The notes under the pieces were generated by a model. It had not been told where the DNA came from, did no database searches, and saw nothing but the letters and a program-made list of their open reading frames with translations. A stretch of 62,104 nucleotides of DNA, counting the filler, from Hausera hauseri (Eukaryota), in assembly GCA_046269625.1 (NCBI GenBank). It is 11 parts of 11 records of this genome, joined end to end, with 100 filler letters (N's around TTAATTAATTAA, not from the genome) between each part and the next. Parts side by side here need not be neighbours in the genome. Positions count along the whole stretch, not along the records: positions 37,484 to 43,406 come from JBJURY010167641.1; 10 more parts are not named here. One strand, given 5' to 3'. The stretch's first letter is position 1. Each line of letters starts with the position of its first letter. The translations under genes and the position numbers were made by a program. Positions 1,681-61,776 of the stretch are shown here, one piece after another.

Positions 1681-1822
1681 AATTAGTTAGGTCTGCATTT
1701 CCTACATTTCACTTTTATAAAATTCCCCAAATAAATCGATACGTGCACATGTCTACAAATTTATCCCATCCCAAAAATAAACCTAATCAATAACCGTAAT
1801 GATTAAACAGAATTTACCCCAC

Positions 1823-4779: not shown

Positions 4780-5150
4780 CCACGTTACTGTACCAATAAA
4801 GTGCATGACGTTGGTGGTTGCCATAGTGCAATGGAGCAATACTATGGCACCACAACAGTGCACAGTAAACGGGCCTATGTATGTCCAGGTTGTTCTATAG
4901 CTAATGATTAAATCAACTATGAACAGTTTTATAATCAGCACCATGACCACTTAACCCAGTTTAAACGGTTAAAAAAAAATATTAATGGACGCAGTAAAAA
5001 GCAGCAGTAGCAGCAGTATTCCCTCAACAAGTAGTAAGCGCCAGGCATCAACAAGCCTTGACGAATACTTGAAAAATAACAGAAATCAAAAGCAGCAGAA
5101 GGAGCAGCAGGAAGGAACCACGTATTACTGTCAAGTACGATCTGAAAAAA

Positions 5151-8100: not shown

Positions 8101-8290
8101 CGCAAAAGACGTTCAGCTGTCCCAGACGGAAATAAGCCACGGTGATTATCTCCGTATCTATGAAGCAGCAGCAGAAGATGGAAGACGACAAGGAGGAAGA
8201 GGAGGACAATCAATGGCTGTGTCAAACAACCATAACAAACTATAACACAAAAATCGCTTTGTCATGCAATGATGATAAGCGAAAGTGAGT
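5151..8290 (+). pseudogene. Protein-primed family B DNA polymerase (Polinton/Maverick/adintovirus type), with many frameshifts and stops
   Basis: Motifs in order: CFLYSILA, FERHNPTLSINVF, ExoI YVVYADI, HNH-like HHDHFTGRYLGAACNSCN, ExoII FHNFRGYD, RFLDSLQFL, KGIFPYD, ExoIII YLKLDVFLLADVF, PolA DINNLYGWALS, PolC GDTDS, FKDE, LRPKCY. Confidence 0.92.
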
Positions 8291-13124: not shown

Positions 13125-13895
13125 TTACCTCAACTTCGACTTTGCTGAGAATGAAATGAATAGATCGTATAGACCCAGCGCCCACAGGGAGAACACCGCG
13201 ACTGCCCCAGTGCGTCGATCCTCTGCAACGACACACGACATTCCAAGCCTGATTGGCCGTACAGAACCAATAGAATATACAAAAACTGGGCACTCTAAAC
13301 ACGATCGGCGTTCATTTGTCTCTTGCATGTTTTGGTCATGAACCATCCATTTATATTTATTACTGCATCTGATTGCAGTCAATGCAAATTCAGGGATTGA
13401 TGCCATGTCGGAATATCGTGGCAAAACAAGAGACGATGGAATAACCTTTAATGGTGAAAATATAATCACATCCAGTGTTCGGGTTTCAATCGAGAGTTGC
13501 TTAAGGGCTTCAACTATGACGTTACAATTTACAATATAACCGGTAGCAGTGCTTTTTGCGTAACTTTTAGCTGATGCACGATGAATTGATTGCCGTACAG
13601 AAGTAGGAACACCCTCATAAGAATATTTTCCATCCGAAAATAGCAGTGATATTGTTGCCCCTTTAGTGATGCTTGAAGACCATACATGAGAAAAGAGAAA
13701 TGAGCCTCGTATCGTATAATTTATGCGTGTAAAAGTACTGATGGGTAAAAGAATCTTTGATTCATTTAACTTAAATTCAGTTCCTTTTATTGTATGTACG
13801 AAAAACATAAGAATAAAATCACAGTGCTCACATAGCAATAGCTTCAAAGGAAACGTTTCACATTTAGAGCAACAACCTTTAATGAAACCCCACAT
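13125..13895 (-). CDS. Hypothetical ORF of unknown nature
   Basis: 256-codon open frame with no recognisable motif. Confidence 0.25.
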   Translation of the reverse strand: MWGFIKGCCSKCETFPLKLLLCEHCDFILMFFVHTIKGTEFKLNESKILLPISTFTRINYTIRGSFLFSHVWSSSITKGATISLLFSDGKYSYEGVPTSVRQSIHRASAKSYAKSTATGYIVNCNVIVEALKQLSIETRTLDVIIFSPLKVIPSSLVLPRYSDMASIPEFALTAIRCSNKYKWMVHDQNMQETNERRSCLECPVFVYSIGSVRPIRLGMSCVVAEDRRTGAVAVFSLWALGLYDLFISFSAKSKLR

Positions 13896-14727
13896 ATAGC
13901 CTAAATTTAATCTGTTTTAACCCAACCCTAACATTAACCTAAATCCAAAGTGCATGCAATTTCTTTCTTCAATTTCCAACGGTGTTAGGGGTGCGGCGTC
14001 AGTGCGGTCATACGTCAGGCCACCCATTAGTTAGTGAAATACCTCTCTTAAGCTTTCGGTATTCGGTCACTGGGTGGCCATGTGTGAATGTATGAGTAAT
14101 GGGGTTTTAATTGGTCGTAATTCAAAACACCAAAAGTGATTCTTAGTGGGGCACATACGTCATTTATGGAAATGGATCAAAATAAATATATAGATTAAAA
14201 TAGTTAGTGATTAATTGATTATATAATCGTTACAATCAGCAGCCCTATTAAAAATCTTCTTAGTGAACCTAAGTATTTTTATGCTTTTGCTGTTAATTAA
14301 AAATACGAAATAATATTAAAAAAGATTCCCTTTTCCAAAGAACCCTACTTAACTGCTGCTTTGAAAGAATGAAAGCCTTCCTAAGATCAACCCTGTATTC
14401 ATGTCAAGGGATGTGGAAAGCAAGGGATTTCACGAAAAGGCATCCATTATGGGATGGAATCCCAGACAGAAAACTGTCCATGTCCACCGAAGTTCGAGTG
14501 TCGCCAGTCTTGAATGCGTGGATGAATTTGGCACAACCTCGTGGGTCATGAATTTCATGGATTTCAGACAGAATGAAAAATTCACCTTGTATGCCACAAT
14601 AATTTTTCCATTAATAGTAATTATTCANNNNNNNNNNNNNNNNNNNNNNNNNNNNNNNNNNNNNNNNNNNNTTAATTAATTAANNNNNNNNNNNNNNNNN
14701 NNNNNNNNNNNNNNNNNNNNNNNNNNN

Positions 14728-19934: not shown

Positions 19935-22900
19935 AAATATGAGTCGGAAATAGAGTCATATAAATCGAAAATCAAAGATTTAGAGGGCATCAGATCGGAA
20001 GACGGTGTTCGAATTAGCGAGTTTGATAAACTCGTTAATACTTTGGGTGAAGATGAATCCGAAATAAAGAAAAGATTGGGTGACATTAGTCGAGAAATAA
20101 CATTATTGCGAGTTAACGAGAATGTATTACAGCGCAAGTTAGCTGCAATACAAGAAATGGAACAGACGTTACGTCGAGTTTGTTATTCGGATTTGCTTTG
20201 TGGGTTTACTTCAGTAGGACAACAACAAATTGAAAAATGAAATGATACAGATTGAGGCCACTGTCACCGAACGTATGGGGTTTTATCGTCGGTTTAAAGA
20301 AACCGCTAATTACAAATTGAATGTCATTCACCGAGAATTGGAAGAATCAATACCGAAAAAAGATTTCGAAAAGCTTCGATCGCGTTTTGATGAATTGACG
20401 GAAAAATATCGAAATTTCTTGGAAAAACAAAATTTCCTCATCAGTCGTGGTCAGTCAATCACACAAATTGAAAGTGAATACAACAAATTACGAATGGATC
20501 ATGAAGCTGTGAAAAAGATTCTTGAAACCGAGAAGCAACGTCGACATGTTCTTGAAGCGGTTCTTGAAGATATTGGTGATGGGGTAATTGTGAAGATGTT
20601 TATTGTATTATTGCATTCAACTGCACATCATTTCTGAGGTTGTTTATGTTCTTGATTTGGATTGTTGGAATTGGTCTATGGCACTTAAGGTTTGTTTGCG
20701 TTACATCTTAAATTGGTACATTTATTGGTTTTGACCTAAATTACATTGTCTTCAAATGATCTTAATTTTTGATTACTTTATATGACTTGGGCTTTAATGA
20801 CCTTGAATTTTTTGACGTTACCCTTGAAATTTGGTGGTTTGACTTTGAATGACCTTGACCTTTGTAGACGTTGATCTTTTATGGCCTTTTTGAACGGCTT
20901 TGTTTTCTATATCTTGACCTTAAAGTTTTATAGTACTGACCTTGAATAACTTTGACCTTTTATGACCTTGAATAACTTTGACCTTTTACCATATTTATCT
21001 TGAACTGCTTTGAATTTGACCTTGAATGACCTTGACCTTTTACATTTTTATCTTCAGCGTCTTTGACCTTGACCCCGAAAATCTTGACGAATTGAAAGAG
21101 AAATTAATTTTAAGAACTCTAGTCTCTCGACAGAATCTATCCAAATAATTGTTCTGTTTTAAATTTGAATTTTGTAATTTATGTCTCATCACTTAATTTT
21201 CATTTTCAGCCATCATCAAGCACTGGCACAGAAAATCTAAAAAAGTCCAAGCCTATTTCAACAGATGCTCATTTGGTGTCCATATCGAAGAAAATGGCAA
21301 CATTGGAAATGAAGGAACTTAACGAACGAGAGAGAGCCGATCATGCTGTACGAATGTATGACAATGTTAAGGTTACATGGAATGAGGCGGAGAAACGAAA
21401 CAAGGAACTGGAAGATAAATTGTCTAGTTTGACTGGGGCAAATTTAGAATTGCAGAAAATTGAACGGGAACTGAGAGATGAACTGATCGATTCGGTGTCC
21501 AAGGAAATCAATGATGTGGAAAAACGGAAAGTCATGGAACTGGAGAAACGAGAATTGGATGCGAAACACGAGATAGACAAACTGAAGGAAATTGCAGAAA
21601 TAGCCACAATGCAGACAGCAACATTGCAGGAGAGACAAATGTCGAGGGACAAAGAGGCTGCATCATTACGTCAGCAACTATTGGACATTCAGTCACAATC
21701 TGATGAGAAGAGTGTCATTGGCAAGTTACATCGGCACATTGTCCACATGCAATTGTCTGAGGCTGCCGCATTGAGGAAATTGGATGATGCACAGCGAATT
21801 CAAAAACGATTAGAAGCCCAAATTCTCCGAACCGAACAAATTTGCGACGAGAAAGATCAAAATCTCTATCACACGCGAACTGAAGCCCGAAATAGAGGTA
21901 AACATTTGAAGGCAACGATAAATTCGTTACGGAGTCAGTTTTCTGGTAGCATTCCATTGTCAAAACAAGAAAGATTCACAACGACATTGGTAATGTTAAC
22001 AGAAGAAAAAGCAAAATTGGACAAAGAGCTTCATGAAACATTGCAAGCAAAGTTCCAAGCTGAAACTGAACTGGAAGCGGAAAAACTGGTGAAGAAAAGT
22101 CATGAAGAATTGGTGTCAGCATTGAAGGACAAGAAAAATGAGAAGAACATTCTCATTCAATGGCAAAATAAATTGGAGTCTGTGCGACTGGATGAACTGA
22201 AACAAAGAAGACAAGTGGATTTACTGCAGCATGAAATTGAACATTTGGAGAGTGTTATCAAATGTCAGGAGAAACAATTAGCACAAATGGAATACGAATT
22301 AGTCCAATTGTCCAAAGAAGCCGATGAAAAGGAAATGATGTGGGAACAACGAGAGAATGAATTAGAAAGGACAATTTACAACATGGAGAATATCCAGGGA
22401 GAAGTGATTATTGCAGCGAACTCGTTCCAAGAAGCCAGTGGAAAGAAAGAATATTACGGAACAATGCCAGATCCAAATGTGCCATTACCGAACCAACTGG
22501 AACAGGCAGTGGCGTCGATAAAAAAGAATATCAGGGTAATATTCGACAAAGAAAATGAAAATAAGGCAGTTAAAAAGGTGGTTTGTGTGAAGATCTGTTT
22601 TTTAGTTAATTCTTTATTCATTTCAGCAAAATAAAGATTTGGAGAATAAAATTCGTGAACTAGAAGGCACGTTACTGAAACGTGAACGATACATCAATGA
22701 GATGCATCTACGATTACCAGCAACAGAGGACAGATCAGATGTGATGGGACAAGTGTCAGAAGTTGTGGTGAAGTCACTTATAAATCAGAATAAACCGGAT
22801 TATGTTGATGAGAAAACTATGTGGGCGGCAATGACAACAGTGACCGGTTTGAAGGAACGAATCAAATCGAAGGACGAATGTTTGACACGATATGAAATCC

Positions 22901-23240
22901 TATTGAAAGAAGCTCGAGACGATCTGATTGATAACAACAAGAGACATGCATTGGAGATACAAACATTGCAGGATCAACTCAACAGTCTCATCCAGTCGAA
23001 GGCATCGCATGTGCTCAACAATCAGAATTCGAATATCGTCATCAAGGGGAAAATTAGCAGTCAACATTTACAGAGGTTGCAGGAAGTCGAGGAATTGTTA
23101 TCGTTAGAGAAACACACGACAGCCGAACAGAAATATCAGATCGAGGAATTACAGAGGCAGTTGAATAGTCAGCGTCAACAGTTGGAGATGAGTGATCGAA
23201 TTTTGCAGTCACGGATGCGGGATGCTGATTCTAAATATAG
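19935..23240 (+). CDS. CEP290: Centrosomal protein CEP290, internal exons 19935-20177, 20218-20583, 21210-22577, 22627-23240
   Basis: Coiled-coil protein with CEP290 motifs LEMKELNERERADH, LRDELIDSVS, QSQSDEKSVIGKLH, EARNRGKHL...LRSQFSGSIPL, PDPNVPLPNQLE, INEMHLRLPAT. GT-AG introns of 40, 626 and 49 nt keep the frame. Confidence 0.93.
20731..21072. repeat. Intronic cluster of TGACCTTG(A) repeats
   Basis: More than 10 copies of TGACCT(T/TG) within about 340 bp of the 626-nt CEP290 intron. Confidence 0.8.
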
Positions 23241-23543
23241 GTTATTGATTTTTATTTTGTATAACTATATAACATTATCACTATAAAATTCTTTACCTAA
23301 ATCCGTTTGTACATTCTGATGATTTCTGTGAGCAGAATAGTTCAATATTCATGTTTCAAAATTATGATAAAGATAGCTGGATAAGAATGGATTGTAAGAA
23401 TCTCATGTATCGGACATTAGGTGTATGCTTTTGCTTCGATTTTTTAAAACTTTAATGGAATGTCATCAAATTTTAGTGTTCCGGACTTTCATGAATATCA
23501 ACTGTAAAATCATTGGACCATATAACTGAGTCAGTACATGGTA

Positions 23544-37483: not shown

Positions 37484-37670
37484 CTTTTCTAAACTACTAC
37501 CTGACAAAGAAAAGAATATGCTGTGTCACTTGAACAGGTACATTTATAGACTGCCAGAATATATACCTGACTCTTTACATCAAGATTTTAAAGTTACCAA
37601 AGATCTTATTCATTGGTCTAAGGACACAGCTCAGGCCATGTTGGCCAACTTTGAAACTTGGTTAAACTGA
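37484..37670 (+). CDS. C-terminal end of ORF1 (continues from 43406 across the terminal overlap)
   Basis: Reads LPEYIPDSLHQDFKVTKDLIHWSKDTAQAMLANFETWLN*; DLIH (37602-37613) is SGNH block V. Confidence 0.88.
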
Positions 37671-39898
37671 GTAGCCCCAGAGGCCCGAATGGGTTGGGGC
37701 CTAGTAAAGGTGTTGTTTTAAATGAAAATATTTACAACCTATCTAAAAACTTTTCGTTGAGCGAAGCACAAAGCTCACTATTAAACAAAGGGCTCACTTT
37801 TATCCCCACCCAGGTCAAAACAGATCATAAAAATGGGATGTTTCAAACCAGGTTTGACCTTCAGAGATATCACAGAAGAGTCAAATTGGCAGTTTATTAC
37901 AAAGAGACCACTACTGCTCCCAGCAATTCTATTTCTCATAAATTTTTACCCGAATCTAATTGGACACCTCCTGATATTATGCTTCCCCCAGAGGTCATAA
38001 CATTGGTTCACAATGACCTGCAGTATTTGGACAAACATTTTAGAATTGTTAAAATCAGACCTAATTTGAGTTCAGCGGAAAACAAAGCTCTCCGTCAACT
38101 AATTGACAATAAAAACATAGTCATCAAACCGGCAGATAAAGGTTCCGCGATCGTCATTATGGATCGAGAACAATATATTTTTGAAGCTAATCGACAACTA
38201 TTTGACACTACCTATTATGAACAAATTGACCAACCAATTTATCTAGAAACCATTCCTATGGTTTCCAAAATAATTGATAATTTGCATAAAAAGAAATTTA
38301 TTACTGCTAAACAAAAAAGCTACCTCTTGGGCTCCTCTGAACCCAGAATGAGGAGATTTTACCTGTTACCTAAAGTCCACAAGGACCCTTCAAAATGGAG
38401 TAAGCCTCACGAAATCCCTCCTGGTCGTCCCATAGTATCTGATTGTGGAAGTGAAACCTATGGAACAGCAGAATTTATCGACCATTTCCTGTATCCGCTG
38501 TCCACGCTCCACAACAGCTACATTAAAGACACTTATGATTTTATAGATAAGATTAAACAAATTACCCTACCCCTTGAATCCATTTTATTCACCATGGATG
38601 TGGATTCGTTATATACTAACATTAAAATTAATCAAGGGTTGGCTGCTATTAAAAACATTTTTCTCAAACACCCAGACAGCAAAAGACCCGACAAAGAACT
38701 CCTCCAGCTCTTAGAAATTAATTTGAAAAGAAATGACTTTCAATTTAATGGCCAATTTTTCCTGCAGATCAAGGGTACCGCTATGGGTAAACGTTTCGCT
38801 CCCTCGTATGCCAACATTTTCATGGCAGCGTGGGAGAACCAAGCTCTTAACGCTTGCAGAAAAAAACCTTTGCATTATTTTAGATATTTAGATGACATCT
38901 GGGGAGTATGGACCTACTCAGAGGCGGATTTTGAGGAGTTCGTTAAAGAACTAAACAACTTCAACCCCTCTATTCAACTCAAGTCTACTAAGAGCGTTAA
39001 AGCTGTAGACTTCCTTGATACCACTACATATAAAGGCAACAAATTCAACACAACACATAAATTGGACATTAAAGTTTATTTCAAACCTACAGACACACAT
39101 GCATTACTCTACAAAACTAGCTTCCATCCCAAACATACTTACGCAGGTCTAATTAAATCACAACTCCTCAGGTTTCATAGAATTTGTACCCTAAGCAGTG
39201 ATTTTGAGGAGGCAGTGGCCGTCCTCTTCGCGGTCTTGGGTAAGAGGGGATATTCCAGATCTTTCCTCCGAGCTTGTAAAAGATCCTTTTTGCAGGCCGG
39301 ACAGCGAGATCCCTCCCCAATGCTCCCCCTGGTGACGACCTACTCCTCCTCAGCCAACCTTCTCATCTGTAATATTAAACAAAATTTCAATAAATTCCAA
39401 TCTGACACCTCCTTGCTTCCTAACCATAGAATAATTGCGGCCTATAAAAGAAACAAAAATTTGAGAGACCTCCTTGTCCAAGCAGAACTTAAACCACTGA
39501 GGGAGGTAAAAACCAAGGGCAAAAAGGAGTTCTTTAAACAGCTACGCTGGGTACAGAATAGGTTTGATAAATCTGTTTACAAACTGGAACAATCAGGTAA
39601 CCCTAAATCCAAAAATTGCATTTATTTAATCACTTGCAAAACATGTGAGATCAATTATGTGGGTGAAACTGGCAACTCCATCCTGACTCGTTTCACCCAA
39701 CACAGATACAATATAGTAAATAAAAAAGATACACACATACCCCTAGTCCAGCATTTTATCCAACATGGCTGGCAGGCGGTATCAGCCACGGTGTTGGAGT
39801 CCAACCTCAGGTGGTCCACAGCCCAAAGAAGGAGAGCAGAAAAAATTTGGATTAGCAGACTCAATACAAGCTTCCCTGGTGGTTTAAATGATCGATAG
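37658..39898 (+). CDS. Penelope-like reverse transcriptase + GIY-YIG endonuclease (intact)
   Basis: IYNLS, LLNKGLTFIP, IKPADKGSAIV, FYLLPKVHK, GRPIVS, MDVDSLYTNI, GTAMG..FAPSYANIFM, RYLDD, VYFKPTD, SFHP; C-terminal CIYLITCKTC..YVGETG..RFTQH..HF..H..E..WI..L.T..P.GLN. Confidence 0.97.
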   Translation: MVKLSSPRGPNGLGPSKGVVLNENIYNLSKNFSLSEAQSSLLNKGLTFIPTQVKTDHKNGMFQTRFDLQRYHRRVKLAVYYKETTTAPSNSISHKFLPESNWTPPDIMLPPEVITLVHNDLQYLDKHFRIVKIRPNLSSAENKALRQLIDNKNIVIKPADKGSAIVIMDREQYIFEANRQLFDTTYYEQIDQPIYLETIPMVSKIIDNLHKKKFITAKQKSYLLGSSEPRMRRFYLLPKVHKDPSKWSKPHEIPPGRPIVSDCGSETYGTAEFIDHFLYPLSTLHNSYIKDTYDFIDKIKQITLPLESILFTMDVDSLYTNIKINQGLAAIKNIFLKHPDSKRPDKELLQLLEINLKRNDFQFNGQFFLQIKGTAMGKRFAPSYANIFMAAWENQALNACRKKPLHYFRYLDDIWGVWTYSEADFEEFVKELNNFNPSIQLKSTKSVKAVDFLDTTTYKGNKFNTTHKLDIKVYFKPTDTHALLYKTSFHPKHTYAGLIKSQLLRFHRICTLSSDFEEAVAVLFAVLGKRGYSRSFLRACKRSFLQAGQRDPSPMLPLVTTYSSSANLLICNIKQNFNKFQSDTSLLPNHRIIAAYKRNKNLRDLLVQAELKPLREVKTKGKKEFFKQLRWVQNRFDKSVYKLEQSGNPKSKNCIYLITCKTCEINYVGETGNSILTRFTQHRYNIVNKKDTHIPLVQHFIQHGWQAVSATVLESNLRWSTAQRRRAEKIWISRLNTSFPGGLNDR
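37661..37703 (+). promoter_or_regulatory. Putative -1 programmed ribosomal frameshift signal (G UUA AAC plus stem-loop)
   Basis: The heptamer sits in the 16-nt ORF1/ORF2 overlap and ORF2 is in the -1 frame. After a 6-nt spacer comes the hairpin GCCCCA-GA-GGCCC-GAAT-GGGTT-GGGGC. Confidence 0.7.
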
Positions 39899-39973
39899 TT
39901 CCTGGGTGGGACTCCCAGTGGGTGCGCCCGTGTATTCAGGGACCTTCTTGCCTTGTGTGAGATGGTCTTTGAC

Positions 39974-40010
39974 GTGAAAGGTCAGCCGCCTCCGGCGGCT
40001 GACTTTCCAC
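39974..40010 (+). other. Strong GC-rich hairpin downstream of ORF2
   Basis: GTCAGCCGCC-TCC-GGCGGCTGAC perfect 10-bp stem, extendable to about 17 bp. Confidence 0.75.
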
Positions 40011-40020
40011 TCTTCTCATC

Positions 40021-40363
40021 CTAACCCTGCCAGTGCCGCCTGCAACAGGTCTCACCCTTGTTTCTTTCTTCCCTGATAACCCCAGGTGTTTTTTATACTA
40101 AAAAACTTCCTAACTCTTAACTCCACCAACCCTAAACTTAACCAGTTGTTAATTAAAACCTAAACCTAACCAACCCAACTCTTTCCCAGGTTTTTATTAA
40201 CCCAAAACTCAACCAACCCTAAGCTTAACCGGTTGTTTATTAGCCCCATAACTTAACCAATCTTAAACCTAACCCTTTGTTTATTAACCCTAAGCTTAAC
40301 CAAACCCAAAACTTAACCTGAACTGAAATAAAAAACGTACTTTACCAGCCCTAATCTTAACCC
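40021..40363. repeat. Degenerate telomere-like repeats (TAACCC / AACCCTAA / CTTAACC)
   Basis: Many TAACC(C) variants arranged in loose units of about 40-45 bp. Confidence 0.7.
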
Positions 40364-40814
40364 TGACTGGTTGTCCTATTGGCCCAAGTTTTTAACTTGT
40401 CTTGGATTTGATGCAGTGTTTTATTTGTTTCATTACTTACGTTGCCCACTAGATGGCAATGTTGCTCTGCGTTGGACAGCTGGATGTCCTCCTTGTAGTC
40501 CTGCTTCCACGTATGACCTGTAAAAAAAGAGAAAAAAAACATTTTTGAGTTACTAGAAGGAACAATAAGAATATAACATTGCTATTTGCACAAACTTTTC
40601 CTGATGTCATTTTGTTTGGTTACTTGAAACCCATTTTTACCCTGCTGGTTCATATTCCACTTGAAGTTCTGATTTGATGTAGTGTTTATGTTTAAGTTCG
40701 TCAGTTGAGACTGTTATTTTCATAGTTATATGTCTTTTATAAGGAACAAGTTGAATGTGATGCCATGGCCCTCAGAAAGGTACAAACTCTTACCTGGCCA
40801 CACCCCCATCCTAG

Positions 40815-40898
40815 GATTGGCAAACACATTACGCTGTAAACCAATCAGGTTACTGTTTTTATTGAAACCCACAATTTGAATGTCTCCCGTATATATAG
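40815..40898 (+). promoter_or_regulatory. Pol II promoter-like region (inverted CCAAT, CCAAT, TATA)
   Basis: GATTGG at ~40815, CCAATCAG at 40841, TATATATAG at ~40890, upstream of the ribozyme and ORF1. Confidence 0.55.
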
Positions 40899-40925
40899 TG
40901 AGACTGTGACTGTTAGAACTTCCTT

Positions 40926-40989
40926 AACAGCATTTTTTTACCTGATGAAGGTCCACAGAGGACCGAAACGTTGTAAACTGAATGCTGTT
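40926..40989 (+). ncRNA. Minimal type I hammerhead ribozyme
   Basis: CTGATGA (40942-40948), stem II GGTCC/GGACC, GAAAC-GTT, stem I TTTAC/GTAAA, and distal stem AACAGCATT/AATGCTGTT. Predicted cleavage after 40972. Confidence 0.9.
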
Positions 40990-41119
40990 TCCCTGTAAAT
41001 ATTGTACATAGTTATTATTAAAAAGCCAAACGGCACTAAAACAAGCTACAATTCTCATTTTTATTCACTTTTTGAATTTTTAGTAAGAGTCCAAACAATT
41101 TAATATTTTTTGAGTTGAA

Positions 41120-43406
41120 ATGGCTGACGACTACGATGAGCCAGGCTGGACCAGAGTTAGCTACAGGAGAGGACGACGACGTCGTTTCAACGGTCACCAA
41201 CAGCCGAATGAGAGTCCCAGGAGATCTGAATGGAGGAGTCGTGACCGTCCGACCTCCAGACCCACACGTAGGAGCTACGCTTCTGTGACCCGTGGACGCC
41301 CTGCTCAACGTTGGACGAACCGAGGGGACAGGAGCCGCGGTGCAGACTCCTATCCCACCCGGAGCTTTAACCCCTCGTTAACCCGCAGACGCTCCCCTCA
41401 GCACTGGACGTCCCGAGATGACAGACGTGATGGGGACTGGTACCCCTCCCGTGACTTTGGCACCTCGGCGACCCGCAGACGCTACAGGAGTCCAGATGGA
41501 GACAGGTATCCCACCCGGAGCTTCAGCGTCTCATCGAACCACGGACGTCCCCACCAGCACTGGAGGACCCGTGAGGACAGGAGTCGAGTTTCAGGCAGGT
41601 ACCGTCCCGGTGGCCCCTCACAACAAAACCGAGGGTACCATCGTCGGGACCACCAGCAGAACGGCAGCACGGCTCGACACGGAGCGCTACAGCGCCGACG
41701 GCAGAACCACAGAAGGAACGGAGACCCTCCCCGTCACAGAGAACCACAACACCGACGCCACGTTAACCCCCCTAATTCATCTCGCCCAGCACAACCACAA
41801 CAACGCTCGGAGGATCCAAACTTCACCAAGAAGGTCAGAGCTATATATAGCATGCTAAGAGCCAAACATCACCTAAATAACGTGTCTGACGACGAACACC
41901 TGCCTCCAGCGATTCAGCGCATCACCCAGCACCTAGGGTCGGTCATCAAACCAGCACAACCGAGCGTAAAAACATCTGACCTTATTGCTGGGAACGCTAG
42001 GTTTTGGGCGTTGAACACTCTTCACATTCTCAGACAGCACTACCAAGACCAGATGCAGGCTGATAAACAGTTTCTCCTCCAACTTGGGGGTGATTTCCTT
42101 GCTCCTTCTGAGGTTGCTGCTAAGTGGGCAAGGCAGAATTTGGGTAAGCGATTCTCTTCACGAACCCCTGATGCTGTCATGGACTATTTGTTTACAGAGG
42201 AGGTGATGACGCAATCACCCGTCGCCGCAGCGGAGGCGCATAACGATGACGCGCCTCCCACCCAAAACTCTAATTTTGAACAAAATCAAGACAGTTCGCT
42301 ACCCACACTTCCTCCTTTGCTTTCAACCGAACCAGACATCACCTCAACACCATCATCTGCTCACCTGGAACAGCAACCACCGCTTTTAGACACGGACGTG
42401 GATGTCAACAACAGGCCGGAGCCCACATCGACACGCCCACCTTCGACTGCTGCTTCTCCCTCACCTCAACATGAACCCACCTCTAAAACTACAGTGACTG
42501 TGACTGACCTCATCCAATCCTCCGTTTCCTCATCTTTCTCCGGAGACGAGGGACCCAGCACGCTTCTTCACCCCGGCCAGCGACCAGCACACGTCCAGTT
42601 TCCCACACCACTGCCACTTCCGCAACGAGTAACGAACTCCGCCCACAAGTCTGCTGGTACCATCGTGACTGATAGGATGACGTCAGAGGCTCCACCCCGC
42701 ACTCCTCAAATGTCAACACTCATCACAGCTGGAGGTGATCTTGCTTGTTTGGAAGACTTTATAGTCATCCCTCCGCTTCCTGCTCCTCTTTCTTCACCTC
42801 CTCAACCACCTGTTCCTGTAAATCTACCTAACACACCCAAATCAAAGAGAATGAAGCTGCAGCATAGACTGAAGACCAGCACTCAGAGAAAAATTAATTT
42901 TAAAAGGCATACCCCTGTTTATGCCTGGAAAAAGAGAAACATTGCTGAAGCCACTGACATTCCTCCCCATCACAAGGTAAAACTTTCATCATTCCAACAC
43001 AAAAGATCATTCAATAAACCACACGATTGGAGTATCAGATTAGATTCCAAAAAGGTTATCATTGGTGACTCGAATGTGAGCAGACTCCCAGTTCACAAAA
43101 ACAATCCTGACCTGGTTGTTCACTCTTATCCCGGCGCAAAGTGGCAACACTTTGCCACCCTCTTCCACAAAGCTGACATCATGCCAAGGGTCGAACGCAT
43201 GATCATCTCTCTGGGAATTAACAACAGATCCCAGGGAGATGAGAACTCTTTGATTAATGAAGTCAGTGAGACTCTTCAGATAGCTAAGGCTAAGTGTCCT
43301 AATGCTCAAATCTTTGTGCCTTCAGTTCACTTTTCTAAACTACTACCTGACAAAGAAAAGAATATGCTGTGTCACTTGAACAGGTACATTTATAGACTGC
43401 CAGAAT
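41120..43406 (+). CDS. PLE ORF1: Arg-rich region, helical domain, Pro/Ser/Thr linker, SGNH/GDSL esterase (798 aa when closed through 37670)
   Basis: ATG at 41120; VIIGDSN (block I, 43064), YPGA (II), LGINN (III), DLIH (V, after the wrap). Confidence 0.88.
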
Positions 43407-54698: not shown

Positions 54699-57600
54699 TT
54701 ATGCTAACTTTCTCACAAGGATATTCATCGTTTCAAGTGCCTGCATATAAGTCCTATTCGCACGTTCACATTCTGATTCCATCTCTGTGGGTTGCACTCC
54801 TCTTTTATTCTTGGCCCTTGGGGTTTTCCCTTGCACCCCTGCTACTACCTGAACTTCATGCACCTCTTTCATTTGTTGTTTTTCTTTTCTGCATTTTTGC
54901 TTTCCACAAGCAGTGTTACTGTCTCTTTTATGTCTCTTCTCGCCCTCCTTCAGGTTAGTTGCATTTTTGCTCCAGCCTTCATTTTTGACTTGGTTCCCTT
55001 TATTTCTTTTTCTTCTTATAGCTGCTGGTGCTTTAATCTTTGCCTTAGGTTCATCTTCATAATCTGTTTCCTCTCCTTCCTGGTATGCCCTTTTTAGGCT
55101 TTCTCGTCTATTTGTTTCCATATCTCCATCTTCTTCACTGGAAGTGCTATACTCCTCTTTTGATGGATCTGAATTGGCCCTGGGTATCATTTCACTCTGA
55201 CTTCCTGATGGCTGACTGCCATTTTCTGATCCTGCCTCTTCTTCTTCATTAACTTCTTGTTTCGCACCTTGTGCACTTACTGCTTGGGTTTCTTGGTTAA
55301 CCCTTTCCTGTTTCTCTACTGTTCTTAATTTTCTCTCCCTAAGCGGCATATCTGATTCATCTGAGGAGTTGTCCCTCACATTTCTATGACGCTTCAACTG
55401 TCTCTGCTTAGCTGCTTCCAGTCTTCGGCTAGCAGCCAATCTAGTATTACGTGCTGGTGGTCTAGACATTGAATCTGTCGAGTCTGACTCCTGTTCAACT
55501 ACCTCCTCAAAATTACTCTCCTCCGATTCGCTGTCTGATGTGAGCTCTCCCGCAATTTCATTTTCTGCATCCTCCTCTACACCATTTTCTTCTTCTATAC
55601 TTAGGTTGGTACCATCTTCCTTGTCACTTTCTTCATCCTCTGTGTTCACATCTGAGTTGTGCATGGCGTTATTACTTTCTTCAACCTCAGTGTTCACATC
55701 TGTGTTGTGCACAGCTTTGTTACTTTCTTCGACCTCAGTGTTCACGTCTGTGTTGTGCACAGCTCTGTTACTTTCTTCAACCTCAGTGTTAACGTCTGTG
55801 CTGTGCGCAACAGACGGAAATGTCACAGGCATATATCCTCCTGCCACCATTGATTCATCCTCTGTATTAGATCTTACGCTATCTTCATTAGTTGACCTGG
55901 TTCGCTCAGTGTCGGAAGTTGATGGGCTAACTACGTAATTAGCTTTTCGTCTTCTTTTCTCTCCCTCCTTTGGTTTTGGTTCTTCCCAATGATGCTCATC
56001 TCTCCTCAAGTGTTCAATATGGGCTTTGGCTTCCTGGCCTGTCCATTGGTTCTTGATTAGGTAACTTACCCGTCCTAATTTCTTGATAACTACATATCCC
56101 TTTATCCAACGTTTGTCCATTTTTGAACTCCTGCGGTGATTTCTATAGTATACCTTATCCCCTATATCAAATTCTTGCATCACTGCATTTTTATCTGCCC
56201 TCCGTTTTTCTCTTTCGAAGGCCTTTTTCATGTTTCTATGGACCCTTTTATGTACTCGATGCATGTCTTGCAACAGTACTTTGTGGAAATCTTCTCCTGC
56301 ATACTTGATGTGTGGTCGCAGTAGTAAATCCATGGGAAGTACTGCGTCTCTCCCATATAACAGTTCAAATGGTGAGTATTTAGTGCTTCTGTTTTCATTC
56401 ATTCGTATTGCGGCCAATGCCTGATTCAAGTATAGGTCCCAATTCCTTTCATTTTCTTGGATGTAAGTGTAAAGAATTTTATAAATAGTAGAATGTTGCC
56501 GTTCATTACGAGCGTTAGCTTGCGGATGATAGTAAGAGGTCGTAACATGCTTTATATTTAACTGCCGCAAGGTATTTTCGAAGGCTTCGCTGACAAATTC
56601 TCGTCCATTGTCTGAAAGTATTACATTCGGACACGAGAAACGAGGTATATAATCATCCACAAGGATGTTAATTATGGTGTTGCTGGTTTTATCCGGTATA
56701 GCATAAGCTTCCGGCCATGCACTGTAGCAGTCGACTATGTGCAGTATGTATTTGTTCCCAGATAGTGTTAACGGGTGAGGTCCCGAAATATCCATACTTA
56801 TTTTCTGCATAGGATAATCTGGCAAATCAGTTGGTTGTAAGGGAGCTTTAAGAGCTCGCATCTTCTGTAACTTGCATGGTTCGCACCGTTGGACATATTC
56901 ATATATATCTTTGACCATATCCTTCCAGAAATATTTCTTTCTAATTGCTTCATACACCTTATCTCTTCCCATGTGGGCATTCTGATCATGAAACTGTTTC
57001 AGCACCCCTTGCTTCAAGTGCTGTGGGATATACTTTTGCAGCTTTGGATCATCATCATTTGTAATGCGATATACTTCATCATCATCGGCCAAGACGATGA
57101 ATTCCTTCCATTTATTTCTTTTATCCTCAATGCCTGACTTAATATCTCTCTTTATTTTCAATATTTTCTCATCCTTTTCTTGCTCCAATTTCATATCAAA
57201 ATCCAACTGCGGTTCATCTGGTTCTGTTGGCACTGTACTCCCTTCTGTGTCCTGTCCTGGTTGGTATAACTGAGGCTGGTTGGAATTTATTATATTAATT
57301 TGAAATGTCCTGTCATCAATATCGGGTGTGCCTTCTCTATTTTCCTCCATTTCTTCTACATCATGTGGTATCCTAGACAATAGATCTGCGCACGTATTCT
57401 CTGGTCCTGGAATGTATTCTATTTGCGCACTGTAACCTTGTAGGTTTAGTACCCAAGTTTGAATTCTCCTGTTGTGGACATCAGATTTTAACCAATTCTT
57501 TAAAGGCATGTGGTCACATTTAATGGTAAACTCTGCATTATGCAAGTAGAAGTTCAATTTCTGTACAGAGTAGTAAATTGCATATGCTTCCTTCTCTACT

Positions 57601-60188
57601 GTTGACCACTTCTGTTGTGATTTACTTAGTTTATGTGATAGAAAATATATCGGCCTTTCATTCTTAGTACCAGGTACCATCCCCTCTGCCCCCTCATCTG
57701 CCTCTTGAGTTAAGACCGCACCTATGCTCATGTCACTAGCATCAGTATGTAAAGTATATTTCTTCCTGGGGTCTGGATGTGCCAGTAACGGAACTGCCGT
57801 AAGACCCTCCTTCAATTTGTCAAAGGCTTTTTGGCATTCTTCACTCCATTTGAATCTAGCAAACTTCCTTGTGAGAGCTATAATTGGCTCTGCGATTTTG
57901 GAAAAGTTTGGGATAAACCTCCTGTAGTATCCACATGTTCCTATAAATCCACGTACTTGCCTTACTGTCCTGGGTGCTGGCATTTGTCTGATAACCTTTA
58001 CTTTATCCTCATCTGGTTTTATGCCACTTCTGTTTATCACAAACCCGAGATATTTTGTTTCCATTTTCAAAAACTCACATTTGCTTAACTTTAATTTCAC
58101 TGAGTGCTGCCTTAATCTGTCAAACACCATCTCAACGTGCCTTAAATGTTCTTCCTTTGTTCCTGCAGTGTGAATTAAAATATCATCAATATAGGCCAAT
58201 GCAAATTTCTGCATCCCTTCTAACACAATGTCCATAAGACTCATATAAGTAGCGGGTGCTCCCTTCAATCCAAATGGCATCACGTTCCATGCGAAGGTTC
58301 CCACATGTGTACAAAAAGCACTTTTTCGCTTTGCGTCTTCTGACATAGGGATACACCAAAATCCGCTCCGTGCATCCAGTGTTGTGTAGTAATCTGATTT
58401 ATTTAGCACTGCTAACACATGCTCGGCATGCGGCATCTCGTAACTCAGATTTGTCGATATTTCATTCAAACGTCTAAAATCGACACAAAATCTTGTACTG
58501 TTGTCCTTTTTAGTAACTAGGACAACAGGGAACGACCACTCGGATCTGATTCGTGTGATTAATCCGGCCTTCAGTAAGTCTTCAATTGCCTTTTCTACGA
58601 TCTCTCGGTTCCTAAGTGGTGTTCGATATGGTTTCATACTGATCGGGGGATGATCCCCTGTATCTATTTCCATCATCACTGTCTTAGTCCTCCCCAGTTC
58701 CATGTCATTCACTGCGAATACATCTGCATGTTTTTCCACAAAACCTTCCATCAATTTCCTGTTCTCACCTTCAGTCGTTAATTGTTTCATTAACTCTTGC
58801 ATCCTCTCCTTACCACTCATTCCTTCTCCATACCTCTGCTTCACCTCCGTCATTTCTCCCACGCTGCTTATTCTTACCTGGTTCTGCCTTGCTCTGTTTC
58901 CATAGTTCCATTTTTGTCTGCTATTCACACAATCTGAGCCACTCTGTCTGGCTTGGTTCCCCTCTGTTCTACTACCATAGTTCTGTTTTTGTCTGCTATT
59001 CGCACAAACTGAACTACTTTGCCTTGAGTGCATGAACCATCTTCTTGAGGAATCATTTTTGCTTTGTCCTCCATTCTGTCTCCATTTCCCATTTCTGCTG
59101 TATCCCCTCTGGTTTAGTCTTATTTCACCAATTTCACTGGTTCCATAGCCATTCCTAATACCGTGGTTATCCTGTCCATGCCTCCTCACACACTGTTCTC
59201 CCCTTAATTCCCTTTTGCTTACATTCTTCCATATCTGTTGTGCCCCAGTTCCATGGCAGTCTGACTCACACCACCACTTGCCCATCTCCTCTCTGCTCCT
59301 CCATCCACTAATTGTCTGTTTATTTACCTGGTGGCCTAAATTCCACCGTGCTTCCCCCTTATCCTTCTGTTTGGCACACTGGCCTTCCCTAGGGTATGGG
59401 TTCATGACCTTACCAATAACACAACCCCTGTTCAGAGCAATGGTTTTGTTTGTTTCATTTGTAATCACCATTGGTACTGTAAAACTTTTGTTTACTTTAG
59501 CTATTCCTTCAGCCAACCATAGACCCGGTTCATCAATTATGTCTCCAGTCCCTAATTCTCCGATTTCCACTGTCTGTCCTTCCTTAAAATATTGCGTTCT
59601 CTTTAGTTTTCCCATTACAAAATTCACCGTGTTAGGTTTGAGTATTACTTTGTCTTTCGCTCGCACCACTGCTGCTATGTGGATATCATCCTGCAGCTCA
59701 ATGTATTGATTCTTTATCCTCATTTTTTGTAAGTCAAAATATAATCTTACGCCATATTTTCGAAGAAAGTCACGACCCAATATCATGGACCTTCCCATGT
59801 TTCTAACAACAAAAAACGGATGGTCAAACGTTAAATTCCCTAATTTAAACTTTAAGGCTGTCAGTCCAATAACTTTTAGTGCATCTCCAGACACGGATTG
59901 CAAGTTCGCTTTTTGGCTTGACAGTTTTCCTTTATTCTTTAAGGAATGATACACTGTTTCTTTAATAATAGAAATCTCTGCCCCAGAATCAATTAAGCTA
60001 CGCACTCTTCTTCTGTCTATTTCTACGATACAGGAGCTTGGGTCATCTGCTAAGTTAATCTGGTAGTGTCTTTCTCTATTTATTTCTTCCCTCCTTCCAT
60101 CCCTGTGCTCTTTCCCCCTGCGGTGGGTTCCTTTACCGCCAAATCCTCCCCAGGTCGAACCCCTTACTGGGTAGGTCCCCCATTTCCC
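54699..60188 (-). CDS. Ty3/Gypsy Pol polyprotein (PR-RT-RH-IN plus long acidic tail), intact, probably made by -1 frameshift from gag
   Basis: LIDSGA, RFCVDFR, LDARSGFW, MPFGL, YIDD, HTDAS, EKEAYAI, CDH, ADLLSR, H-H-CEPC, MDISG, SDNG, NARNER. The frame stays open upstream of 60005 into the gag overlap. Confidence 0.96.
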   Translation of the reverse strand, partial: GKWGTYPVRGSTWGGFGGKGTHRRGKEHRDGRREEINRERHYQINLADDPSSCIVEIDRRRVRSLIDSGAEISIIKETVYHSLKNKGKLSSQKANLQSVSGDALKVIGLTALKFKLGNLTFDHPFFVVRNMGRSMILGRDFLRKYGVRLYFDLQKMRIKNQYIELQDDIHIAAVVRAKDKVILKPNTVNFVMGKLKRTQYFKEGQTVEIGELGTGDIIDEPGLWLAEGIAKVNKSFTVPMVITNETNKTIALNRGCVIGKVMNPYPREGQCAKQKDKGEARWNLGHQVNKQTISGWRSREEMGKWWCESDCHGTGAQQIWKNVSKRELRGEQCVRRHGQDNHGIRNGYGTSEIGEIRLNQRGYSRNGKWRQNGGQSKNDSSRRWFMHSRQSSSVCANSRQKQNYGSRTEGNQARQSGSDCVNSRQKWNYGNRARQNQVRISSVGEMTEVKQRYGEGMSGKERMQELMKQLTTEGENRKLMEGFVEKHADVFAVNDMELGRTKTVMMEIDTGDHPPISMKPYRTPLRNREIVEKAIEDLLKAGLITRIRSEWSFPVVLVTKKDNSTRFCVDFRRLNEISTNLSYEMPHAEHVLAVLNKSDYYTTLDARSGFWCIPMSEDAKRKSAFCTHVGTFAWNVMPFGLKGAPATYMSLMDIVLEGMQKFALAYIDDILIHTAGTKEEHLRHVEMVFDRLRQHSVKLKLSKCEFLKMETKYLGFVINRSGIKPDEDKVKVIRQMPAPRTVRQVRGFIGTCGYYRRFIPNFSKIAEPIIALTRKFARFKWSEECQKAFDKLKEGLTAVPLLAHPDPRKKYTLHTDASDMSIGAVLTQEADEGAEGMVPGTKNERPIYFLSHKLSKSQQKWSTVEKEAYAIYYSVQKLNFYLHNAEFTIKCDHMPLKNWLKSDVHNRRIQTWVLNLQGYSAQIEYIPGPENTCADLLSRIPHDVEEMEENREGTPDIDDRTFQINIINSNQPQLYQPGQDTEGSTVPTEPDEPQLDFDMKLEQEKDEKILKIKRDIKSGIEDKRNKWKEFIVLADDDEVYRITNDDDPKLQKYIPQHLKQGVLKQFHDQNAHMGRDKVYEAIRKKYFWKDMVKDIYEYVQRCEPCKLQKMRALKAPLQPTDLPDYPMQKISMDISGPHPLTLSGNKYILHIVDCYSAWPEAYAIPDKTSNTIINILVDDYIPRFSCPNVILSDNGREFVSEAFENTLRQLNIKHVTTSYYHPQANARNERQHSTIYKILYTYIQENERNWDLYLNQALAAIRMNENRSTKYSPFELLYGRDAVLPMDLLLRPHIKYAGEDFHKVLLQDMHRVHKRVHRNMKKAFEREKRRADKNAVMQEFDIGDKVYYRNHRRSSKMDKRWIKGYVVIKKLGRVSYLIKNQWTGQEAKAHIEHLRRDEHHWEEPKPKEGEKRRRKANYVVSPSTSDTERTRSTNEDSVRSNTEDESMVAGGYMPVTFPSVAHSTDVNTEVEESNRAVHNTDVNTEVEESNKAVHNTDVNTEVEESNNAMHNSDVNTEDEESDKEDGTNLSIEEENGVEEDAENEIAGELTSDSESEESNFEEVVEQESDSTDSMSRPPARNTRLAASRRLEAAKQRQLKRHRNVRDNSSDESDMPLRERKLRTVEKQERVNQETQAVSAQGAKQEVNEEEEAGSENGSQPSGSQSEMIPRANSDPSKEEYSTSSEEDGDMETNRRESLKRAYQEGEETDYEDEPKAKIKAPAAIRRKRNKGNQVKNEGWSKNATNLKEGEKRHKRDSNTACGKQKCRKEKQQMKEVHEVQVVAGVQGKTPRAKNKRGVQPTEMESECERANRTYMQALETMNILVRKLA
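55630..55806 (-). repeat. 48-bp (16-aa) coding tandem repeat, about 4 copies, in the Pol tail
   Basis: H(S/N)(T/S)DVNTE(V/D)EES repeated four times. Confidence 0.9.
60150..60188 (-). promoter_or_regulatory. gag-pol -1 frameshift signal G GGA AAU with candidate pseudoknot
   Basis: Heptamer at 60188-60182 in the gag frame; pol is in the -1 frame. Downstream GGACCT/GGGTTC and CCCAG/CTGGG pairings interleave. Confidence 0.75.
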
Positions 60189-61381
60189 TGGTTCGCGTTA
60201 TTACCAATGGTATGGTTTGCATTGTTACCCCCATTCCTATGATAGTTTGTGCCCTGTGGGTTTATGTTTGTTCTACAATTTCGCGCCCAGTGTCCAACCC
60301 CATTGCAGCGGAAACATCTGTTTAGCCCTGCGGCCCTGGCGATTGGATTATGGTGACCCCTCACATTCCCAATCTTACTGTGGTCATGACCTGTTGCTCC
60401 TTCCCTATTCACTGCTTGTACTGCTCTATTTGGTTGTGCCCTATTCACGTTTCTATTTCTGTCCCTGTGGTTGTGTTCATTTCCTCTCCACCTGGGTCTG
60501 AAATGTTCTATGTCCATTGGTTCTTCGGGTCGCATATGCCCATCCATCCTATCTCTGCCCAACCTTAAATTAAATCTTCTGAGGAGGTTTTCCTCGTCTA
60601 TTGCTATCTGCACTGCTTCCTGTAGGGTATTAGGATTCTTTCTCATTAGCATTAATTTCATTTTGGTACTACTTAGCCCATCAATGAATATAGGTACTAA
60701 TGTTTTGTCAACTTCTTCCTGTCGAGGTTCTTGCCCGATATGTGTCTGTTCCCAAACATTTAGTAGCCTGTCATAATAAAGTTGTATGGTTTCCTGTTTC
60801 TCTTGCTTTATTTTTCTTAGCAACATTATGGCGTAGTGTTCGTCAGTAATTTCTGCGTATCTCTTTGTTAGATCCTTCTTTAATTCCAGCCAAGTTTCGT
60901 TCGGATGACTGTCCAACCGCCTTCTTAAGTAGTCTGATACACTACCTTCTGATGCCAGGAATGCTGCATTTTTCTTTTCGTCTTCAGTGGCCTTCGTGAG
61001 GACGAAAAATTTTTCAAGTTGGGACATATACGTAGCAAAGCTCTTAGGTTCCCCCCGAAAACTTGTGACAAAGGCCCTAACATTTTGTTGCCTGGTATTC
61101 TGGTCTAATCTATTGACCATATGCCCCAATGTATCTAATGCTGTTTTAACTACATCTGAGCCCTCCAATGTGTTGGCTGATTGTCCATTATTTTGTTGTA
61201 TGTTTGTTTGTTGTACATTATGCTGTGTCGCCACTGTAATTTCCTGCTGTAACAATTGCTGTTGTTGTACAGGTAGCTGCTGGAATATGTGGTGGATTAG
61301 TTGGTTCATTTGATTTGGAGTGAGCAGTTCTACATCCCCTGGCAATGGGACACTATTAGCTTCCTCGATTCTTGGGTCCAT
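60164..61381 (-). CDS. Ty3/Gypsy Gag with CCHC zinc knuckle
   Basis: Q-rich N-terminus, IKQEKQETIQLY, FIDGL, EEPMDI, CFRCNGVGHWARNC. Confidence 0.95.
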   Translation of the reverse strand: MDPRIEEANSVPLPGDVELLTPNQMNQLIHHIFQQLPVQQQQLLQQEITVATQHNVQQTNIQQNNGQSANTLEGSDVVKTALDTLGHMVNRLDQNTRQQNVRAFVTSFRGEPKSFATYMSQLEKFFVLTKATEDEKKNAAFLASEGSVSDYLRRRLDSHPNETWLELKKDLTKRYAEITDEHYAIMLLRKIKQEKQETIQLYYDRLLNVWEQTHIGQEPRQEEVDKTLVPIFIDGLSSTKMKLMLMRKNPNTLQEAVQIAIDEENLLRRFNLRLGRDRMDGHMRPEEPMDIEHFRPRWRGNEHNHRDRNRNVNRAQPNRAVQAVNREGATGHDHSKIGNVRGHHNPIARAAGLNRCFRCNGVGHWARNCRTNINPQGTNYHRNGGNNANHTIGNNANQGNGGPTQ

Positions 61382-61776
61382 TCCTTCTGTTATTTCAATA
61401 GCTGACTAAATAATTTAAATTTATATCACTGTGGAAAAAACTTGTGGTTATTTATAAATGTATCATCTGGAAGAAAAAATGTATTACCGATGTAATAAAA
61501 CTGTGAAGTTGCCTTACTTTTGTTACTTCATTTAATGTGTTGTTGAATTTTTGTTGTTGTTGTTGTTCCGGTTGATAATTTATACCTCTATGCTATTTTC
61601 TAAATTAAATAAACACCTGTAACAACTAATACTAAAAACAAATAAAACCGCACGTGAAATTTACAGAATGCAATGTTGCTCATGTCACTTATTCTCAGTC
61701 TCATTTATTTCTCCAAGTTCATTCACTCAGCCTTGTCTGAGATTATTCCTGAGATTCTCTCTGCCAAAGACTGATC

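Follow-up and report, generated by a model that had tools for sequence, protein, structure and literature searches.

Penelope-like elements (PLEs) are usually described as having just one open reading frame (ORF). The element considered here is a PLE with two ORFs, found in the Hausera hauseri assembly GCA_046269625.1. The window, by which we mean the whole stretch of 62,104 nt that was analyzed, is made up of 11 contigs joined by filler linkers (N44-spacer-N44), and the element lies on one of them (JBJURY010167641.1; positions 37484 to 43406; 5,923 nt). Two PLEs from Repbase, BRIDGE1_FR of Takifugu and Neptune1_Ren of a sponge, likewise have an esterase in ORF1; both are listed in PMC3905857, according to which such esterases occur "even in Penelope-like elements." In BRIDGE1_FR, an SGNH domain of about 157 amino acids (K242 to T399) ends ORF1 and the host is a fish, as appears to be the case for the window element. 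The ORF1 of the latter is, at 798 amino acids, about twice as long, a comparison made by description only. The available text of PMC3905857 makes no mention, for either Repbase element, of a frameshift signal, a helical domain, or a missing linker finger, as described below for the window element. It is plausible that the window element is identical with BRIDGE1_FR.

Esterases have also been reported in Neptune-like PLEs of fish and mollusks, along with a discussion of ORF sharing among retroelement classes (PMC5408684). Members of the Neptune clade, some of which carry esterases, share with the window element a reverse transcriptase (RT) with a C-terminal GIY-YIG endonuclease, a hammerhead ribozyme, and, apparently, a layout of pseudo-long terminal repeats (pseudo-LTRs) or tandem copies (PMC8557442, PMC5408684). 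They possess a CX2-5CxxC linker finger, given as characteristic of Neptune and Nematis (PMC8557442), whereas the window element and its close pol relatives do not. The Athena and Terminon PLEs and the Vesta LTR elements of bdelloid rotifers contain a GDSL/SGNH ORF as well and are the subject of the same membrane and transfer hypotheses (PMC5408684, PMC6431247), membrane penetration and horizontal exchange having already been proposed for esterases in PMC6431247. Athena and Terminon are endonuclease-less and telomeric, and Vesta is an LTR element, whereas the window element is endonuclease bearing (EN+). Among long interspersed elements (LINEs), the zebrafish CR1/L2 element ZfL2-1 (structure 4C1B) shares the SGNH fold, the Ser-Asp-His triad, the Gly/Asn oxyanion hole, and the GDS, FPGA-like, and GxN blocks, and its esterase is also C-terminal in ORF1, past basic and helical regions. 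It differs in belonging to a LINE with an apurinic/apyrimidinic endonuclease, and identity is about 16%. Esterase activity and liposome binding were demonstrated for ZfL2-1, and vesicle-borne horizontal transfer was speculated upon (PMC3905857); among the systems compared, this demonstration concerns ZfL2-1 only. The anatomy of PLE esterases and the ideas on membranes and horizontal transfer are therefore already in print and are not claimed as new here. The portions of PMC11167929 and PMC6515669 that were available hold nothing further on ORF1.

We read the locus, with a probability of roughly 0.7, as an intact, recently active two-ORF PLE of a large teleost lineage, with a BRIDGE1-like layout and most likely derived from host-fish DNA. 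ORF1 begins with the ATG at 41120 on the plus strand, an N-terminal W-T-x-V motif there lining up with the beginnings of homologs, and is interrupted at 43406 by the end of the contig after codon 762 of 798. The last 25 of these codons recur at the start of the contig, where 36 more follow in frame up to the TGA at 37668 to 37670. An earlier note on this DNA had proposed that an SGNH esterase with a full catalytic set becomes visible in the ORF1 of a PLE once the contig is circularized, with blocks I to III at its end and block V at its start in a single frame. This proposal stood. Blocks I to III lie at 43040 to 43406 (GDSN at 43064, YPGA at 43127, and LGINN at 43211) and provide Ser651 (43070 to 43072), Gly672 (43133 to 43135), and Asn701 (43220 to 43222). 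The end of ORF1 at 37561 to 37670, also on the plus strand, contributes block V (DLIH at 37602) with Asp777 (37602 to 37604) and His780 (37611 to 37613). All five residues are thus present, and the RT and C-terminal GIY-YIG encoded downstream confirm that the element is a PLE.

The joint that supplies DLIH was real. The first and last 77 nt of the contig are identical (37484 to 37560 being an exact copy of 43330 to 43406, taken as assembly overlap), giving a unit of 5,846 nt; in none of the other 10 contigs do the ends overlap by 6 nt or more. The joint is crossed by contigs of runs X1, X2, and X3, which go back 5,846 nt and extend past it by 255 letters or more on the shorter side; the unit is broken at a different point in each run. 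The X4 assembly is fragmentary and none of its listed contigs crosses the joint, so that three of the four runs do so. Since X1 matches without a difference and could itself be the source of the window contig, X2 and X3 are counted as the independent support. Homologs that are naturally contiguous align without a gap over the joint, DLIH falling in their D-x-[IV]-H-W column, and the 36 residues that the joint adds matched a profile made from homologs only with an E value of 7e-12 (single-sequence E). The joint is no artefact of a single assembly. Circularization need not imply a DNA circle, however. Partial tandems are the normal PLE layout, and the circular unit most likely reflects these. 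It is compatible with a pseudo-LTR or partial-tandem arrangement, the element's own genomic flanks lying outside the data. Among related loci (given L numbers), a direct repeat of 184 nt occupies the ends of L004, its copies lying 5,780 nt apart, and L006 contains a pair of 5,441-nt units head to tail, possibly through assembly doubling.

Pfam recognition of the esterase was weak. The piece without block V matched Pfam Lipase_GDSL_2 (PF13472) with an E value of 0.011 and 16.6 bits, against a curated cutoff of 32.9, and the same family matched five of nine alignment members (best E, 0.002). A single-sequence search of the PDB with the incomplete esterase returned cutinase alone, at an E value of 1.1. 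An AlphaFold model was obtained for the contiguous domain of homolog P0004, which is 44% identical to that of the window and had the window pieces in its alignment. It reached a mean predicted local distance difference test (pLDDT) score of 71, and its top structural matches were SGNH hydrolases throughout, including PAF-AH (Z, 14.3; root mean square deviation, 3.5 over 169 residues) and 4C1B (Foldseek E, 1.1e-4). As the earlier note had anticipated, an SGNH fold of the flavodoxin-like alpha/beta kind was therefore predicted, on the homolog's domain.

The esterase belongs to a large family. Counted as representatives clustered at 50% identity, its profile matched 1,539 proteins at an E value of ≤0.001, 1,008 at 1e-10, and 433 at 1e-30. 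The last figure, together with the published cases (PMC3905857, PMC5408684), contradicts the earlier description of such esterases as uncommon in PLEs; judged from these sequences, the lineage is large and the esterase is clade-wide. A set of 160 distinct proteins, considered without genomic context, was compiled from the best 150 profile matches and the first search. All five catalytic residues were present in 146 of them, a share biased upward by the choice of top matches. The ratio of nonsynonymous to synonymous substitution rates for one pair of loci, L001 and L004, was 0.19 for the esterase and 0.13 for pol. A PLE pol directly follows the esterase in each of the six related loci with both (L001 and L004 to L008), and the linkage recurs in the Esox gene model P0216. 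A scan of GTDB with the pol query yielded 16 loci, among which the esterase was found in L005 to L008 only; the GTDB scan with the ORF1 query gave no loci, and IMG/VR scans with either query gave no confirmed ones. Codivergence of esterase and RT over seven loci was not significant (Spearman coefficient, 0.44; exact Mantel test, 360/5,040 = 0.07).

The pol ORF occupies 37655 to 39898 on the plus strand, in the -1 frame relative to ORF1, and is 747 codons long from stop to stop. It contains a PLE-type RT with a DK-type IKPADKG motif (IKPADK at 38123), YLDD at 38885, and a CxxC...H...H motif, followed from 39617 by GIY-YIG, the order of domains within one ORF that marks an EN+ PLE. Pfam matches were RVT_1 (E, 4e-6) and GIY-YIG (E, 7e-7). 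The best named pol matches came from Nothobranchius (66 to 69% identity), followed by Oryzias, Tachysurus, and Esox (56 to 60%). No CX2-5CxxC linker zinc finger was detected between RT and endonuclease in the window pol, nor in any of the 111 scorable sequences among its 120 best matches, and for this reason the element should be kept out of Neptune as strictly defined. The finger is present at two more distant loci, L009 and L015. In an RT tree of 26 rows, which has long branches and is without named Neptune references, the esterase-bearing and fish pols formed one clade of 18 rows (100/99) beside the loci with the zinc finger.

Signals for programmed -1 frameshifting consist of a slippery heptamer, a spacer of 5 to 9 nt, and a downstream structure at a -1 overlap, and nidoviruses use heptamers of the kind found here. 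In all seven loci with both ORFs, the window included (L002, a near copy of L001, and the truncated L003 were left out), pol begins before ORF1 has ended and is in the -1 frame. Directly before the ORF1 stop, the window has a putative slippery heptamer, G_UUA_AAC (37661 to 37667, plus strand), and 6 nt past it a putative stimulating hairpin (37674 to 37700) with the base stem GCCCCA/UGGGGC. Equivalent heptamers in the ORF1 frame are G_GUA_AAC in L001 and L004, G_UUA_AAU in L005, and the canonical U_UUA_AAC in L006, where the downstream structure reaches -25.7 kcal/mol. A heptamer, a spacer of exactly 6 nt, and a CCCC/GGGG hairpin were thus found in five of the seven loci, and the A-U of the window's fifth stem pair, following CCCC/GGGG, is replaced by U-A in L001 and L004. 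The heptamer followed by 6 nt and NCCCC...GGGG, a pattern defined post hoc, occurred seven times in 215,294 bases and at junctions only, against 0.12 expected per strand. According to the legend of Fig. 1 in PMC8557442, the ORF1 of a PLE can be set apart by a frameshift that involves a pseudoknot. A pseudoknot was also considered here; it could be drawn for the window only (third loop, 1 to 3 nt) and not for L001, L002, and L004, and the hairpin is preferred.

The position of start codons and the ends of ORF1 proteins bear on the same junction. The first Met of the window pol is codon 62, and a conserved N-terminal pol motif is already at codon 25; in six of the seven loci, the first Met is past this motif or there is none within the first 300 codons. 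Counting Met residues in pol proteins from databases tells nothing here, since gene callers also render alternative starts as M. In 133 of 153 homolog proteins, the ORF1 stop follows the slippery Asn by 0 to 4 codons. Of 85, 75 have Ser, Ala, Thr, or Pro (NCN codons) as residue +3 and 62 have Pro as residue +4; to judge by the codons involved, these preferences are the footprint of the CCCC strand of the hairpin. A programmed -1 frameshift that yields an ORF1-esterase-RT-GIY-YIG fusion is, on these sequence features, quite probable. No description of the heptamer-hairpin arrangement in fish PLEs was found in the literature searched, mostly without subscription papers and in text rather than figures, and no RNA run was among the 24 runs listed for the element.

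In addition to the esterase, ORF1 comprises, in order, an Arg-rich arm, a helical domain, and a Pro/Ser/Thr linker. The arm (41120 to 41800, plus strand) contains 8 to 14 Arg per 50 residues over residues 1 to 250, is internally repeated (repeats D1 and D2), and would be a putative RNA-binding arm. It is followed by a conserved five-helix domain (41801 to 42208, plus strand) with invariant Pro, Asn, Trp, Leu, and His residues, which was modeled by AlphaFold with a pLDDT of 95.8 and is present in 129 of 133 homologs of at least 400 amino acids. No Pfam family matched it; Foldseek searches of the PDB and viral structures returned nothing at an E value of ≤0.001, VIA-align gave a best Z of 7.7 (cutoff, Z ≥ 8), and the best Atlas value was 0.81. 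A new fold is not thereby demonstrated for the modeled domain.

The noncoding region contains, at 40926 to 40989 on the plus strand, a predicted minimal type I hammerhead ribozyme with its CUGAUGA core at 40942, stem II formed by GGUCC/GGACC, and a palindromic ACGU helix III. The predicted cut is after 40972, upstream of ORF1. It was identified by hand, the Rfam search having reported no hammerhead, and is the sole match on either strand of the window; its fold had a z score of -5.58, and none of 200 shuffles was equally stable. Hammerheads with covarying stems were also found upstream of ORF1 in L003, L004, and L006. The predicted ribozyme corresponds to the hammerhead of a PLE pseudo-LTR and fits the description of fish PLE hammerheads in PMC4209133. 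A TATA-like word is located at about 40890. The region also includes a degenerate 44-nt tandem repeat with CCCTAA-like (telomere-like) words at 40125 to 40318 on the plus strand (4.4 copies; score, 191), and tandem repeats occupy the corresponding noncoding place in L004 and L008.

These features suggest the following course of events. Copies apparently stand in partial or full tandems, so that the unit assembles as a circle, the cut of which fell within the esterase. A promoter in the 1.2-kb noncoding region would give rise to a transcript, which the hammerhead may trim to unit length. ORF1 joins the Arg-rich arm, the helical domain, and the linker to an SGNH domain with five catalytic residues. 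Most ribosomes would stop at UGA and some would slip by -1 at G_UUA_AAC before the hairpin and make the fusion, as in Gag and Gag-Pol. The esterase may act as a slow carboxylesterase, bind to acidic membranes, and help to place or assemble the ribonucleoprotein (RNP). We give this role, modeled on ZfL2-1, even odds; the suggestion of membrane targeting derives solely from that analogy. As for the family in general, a nick by GIY-YIG would prime reverse transcription at the target. By analogy, the element could be likened to an esterase-bearing LINE ORF1 combined with a Gag-Pol-type frameshift in an EN+ PLE.

The assembly is mixed, and the source of the element had to be judged from several properties. 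Contigs at 1 to 37383 carry flatworm-like, intron-poor genes, including those for TTLL12 (1814 to 3148, minus strand), a CEP290-like protein (21123 to 23286), and a NUP210-like protein (13125 to 13916, minus strand). TTLL12 had its best matches in cestodes and a trematode (32 to 34%). Observed/expected CpG ratios were 0.78 to 1.2 for these contigs, 0.61 for the PLE contig, and 0.49 for the contig at 49590 to 62104, which holds a Gypsy element. Within pol the ratio was 0.49, whereas genes and transposons of the flatworm-like contigs had 0.84 to 1.29. Four runs, each under its own organism code, contained the element, with 0 to 2 differences over the listed pieces. A sister family occurred in X1 to X4 with the same substitutions, its depth relative to the element being 7.2, 9.0, 7.6 to 8.3, and 3.5 to 4.8, respectively, and absolute depth spanned about 60-fold. 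The simplest explanation of the steady ratio is one shared fish genome present at a varying share, and the fish-type element is probably host DNA. Fish-type PLE contigs L005 to L008 were found inside bacterial metagenome-assembled genome (MAG) or single-cell records (Brevinema, Epulonipiscioides, and Enterovibrio), probably by host contamination, and pol P0258 is annotated as a bacterial hypothetical protein.

Several observations weigh against our interpretation. The fold model is that of a homolog's domain and not of the window's own whole domain. The window esterase is highly divergent (mean identity, 0.37; fourth lowest of 165) and has a net charge of only +2, so that relaxed function or another binding surface is possible. 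The window hairpin taken alone has -17.2 kcal/mol and a z score of -1.73, 13 of 200 shuffles being equally stable; the L005 stem has mismatches, G_UUA_AAC and G_GUA_AAC are imperfect heptamers, and L007 and L008 retain the -1 overlap without a clear heptamer-hairpin pattern. CpG ratios are 0.80 to 0.84 in the relatives L005 and L008, and copy number can be gauged only poorly from depth. An artefactual joint, or motifs that arose by chance, might be argued from the Pfam match below its cutoff and from the circular contigs that collapsed repeats can yield, but this reading was refuted by the crossing contigs of two further runs and by the collinear homologs, in addition to the SGNH fold of the model, and its probability is negligible. 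In the same element, pol might instead be made without a frameshift, through splicing, termination-reinitiation, or a non-AUG start, the hairpin serving that process or RNA packaging. PLEs are known to keep spliceosomal introns (PMC8557442), the Esox RefSeq model P0216 fuses ORF1 and pol at the same L-N point under an annotation rule that is not known, and the imperfect heptamers and the two loci lacking the pattern fit as well. Against these points stand the -1 frame in seven of seven loci, the spacer constant at 6 nt across five families, and the canonical heptamer of L006 with a stable structure 3' of it, and we regard a route without frameshifting as unlikely.

Residence of the element in a flatworm-like genome, perhaps in several parasite species, after recent horizontal transfer from fish would account for its sharing an assembly with intron-poor genes that match cestodes and a trematode best, as well as for near-identical copies in runs with different organism codes. 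We consider it very improbable, since the CpG depletion is vertebrate-like, the depth ratio to the sister family is constant across runs, the CpG-poor Gypsy contig points to host DNA in general, and no contig joins the element to flatworm sequence. Less clear-cut is whether the esterase was taken from, or had one origin with, the ORF1 esterases of CR1/L2/RTEX elements, the module exchange that the earlier note had inferred. A single origin of transposon esterases has been argued (PMC3905857), GDS, FPGA, and GxN are held in common, and 4C1B was the only SGNH protein that two sequence profiles retrieved from the PDB. These matches, with E values of 0.11 and 0.66, fall short of significance; in the structural ranking, 4C1B (which is domain swapped, lowering its score) comes after PAF-AH and bacterial enzymes, and in PMC5408684 LINE esterases did not group with those of bdelloid PLE/LTR elements. 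H191 and S228, called transposon specific in PMC3905857, where their double mutation blocked ZfL2-1 activity, were looked for in the PLE clade, with the register taken from HMMER alignments to 4C1B and S228 set one residue past the printed alignment. The His was present in 0 of 165 sequences and the Ser in 3 of 165, a further point against our interpretation; H191 is replaced by Ser or Ala, S228 by Pro, and I144 by an invariant Asn. Because this signature is absent, exchange with LINEs is unsupported, and we hold a shared origin to be possible, though somewhat doubtful.

Other contigs and more distant loci yielded additional observations. An apparently intact, CpG-depleted Ty3/Gypsy element lies at 54699 to 61405 on the minus strand, with a gag of 413 amino acids that contains a zinc knuckle and overlaps a 1,832-amino-acid pol (protease, RT, RNase H, and integrase) in which about 500 further residues have no clear Pfam match. 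ORF pieces at 5073 to 8245, broken by stops, resemble by eye what we take to be a Polinton/Maverick-type protein-primed DNA polymerase region. The 6-kb contig at 43507 to 49489 is a degenerate (GAAC/GAAA/GAAT)n simple repeat, whose long minus-strand "ORFs" look like repeat artefacts. Distant PLE-type RTs in which the GIY-YIG motif was not matched were found at L017, L019, and L020, all in bacterial MAG records; L019 and L020 have an additional ORF with a Lys/Arg tail, upstream of the RT in L020. These three are possibly Coprina-like eukaryotic contaminants.

The presence of fish repeats in assemblies of parasites and gut microbes is a warning as to contamination. Should the transfer from fish to flatworm nevertheless be true, it would supply a live case in which to test whether the esterases of retroelements favor passage from one organism to another. 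As a lineage without the linker finger and without H191 and S228, and with a helical domain that has no match, these PLEs may deserve a clade description of their own. The window element provides a clean, intact, and apparently young copy as a substrate for questions of esterase activity and lipid binding in PLE ORF1 proteins. A -1 frameshift resembling that of Gag and Gag-Pol, if true, would tie the esterase to the RT-endonuclease.

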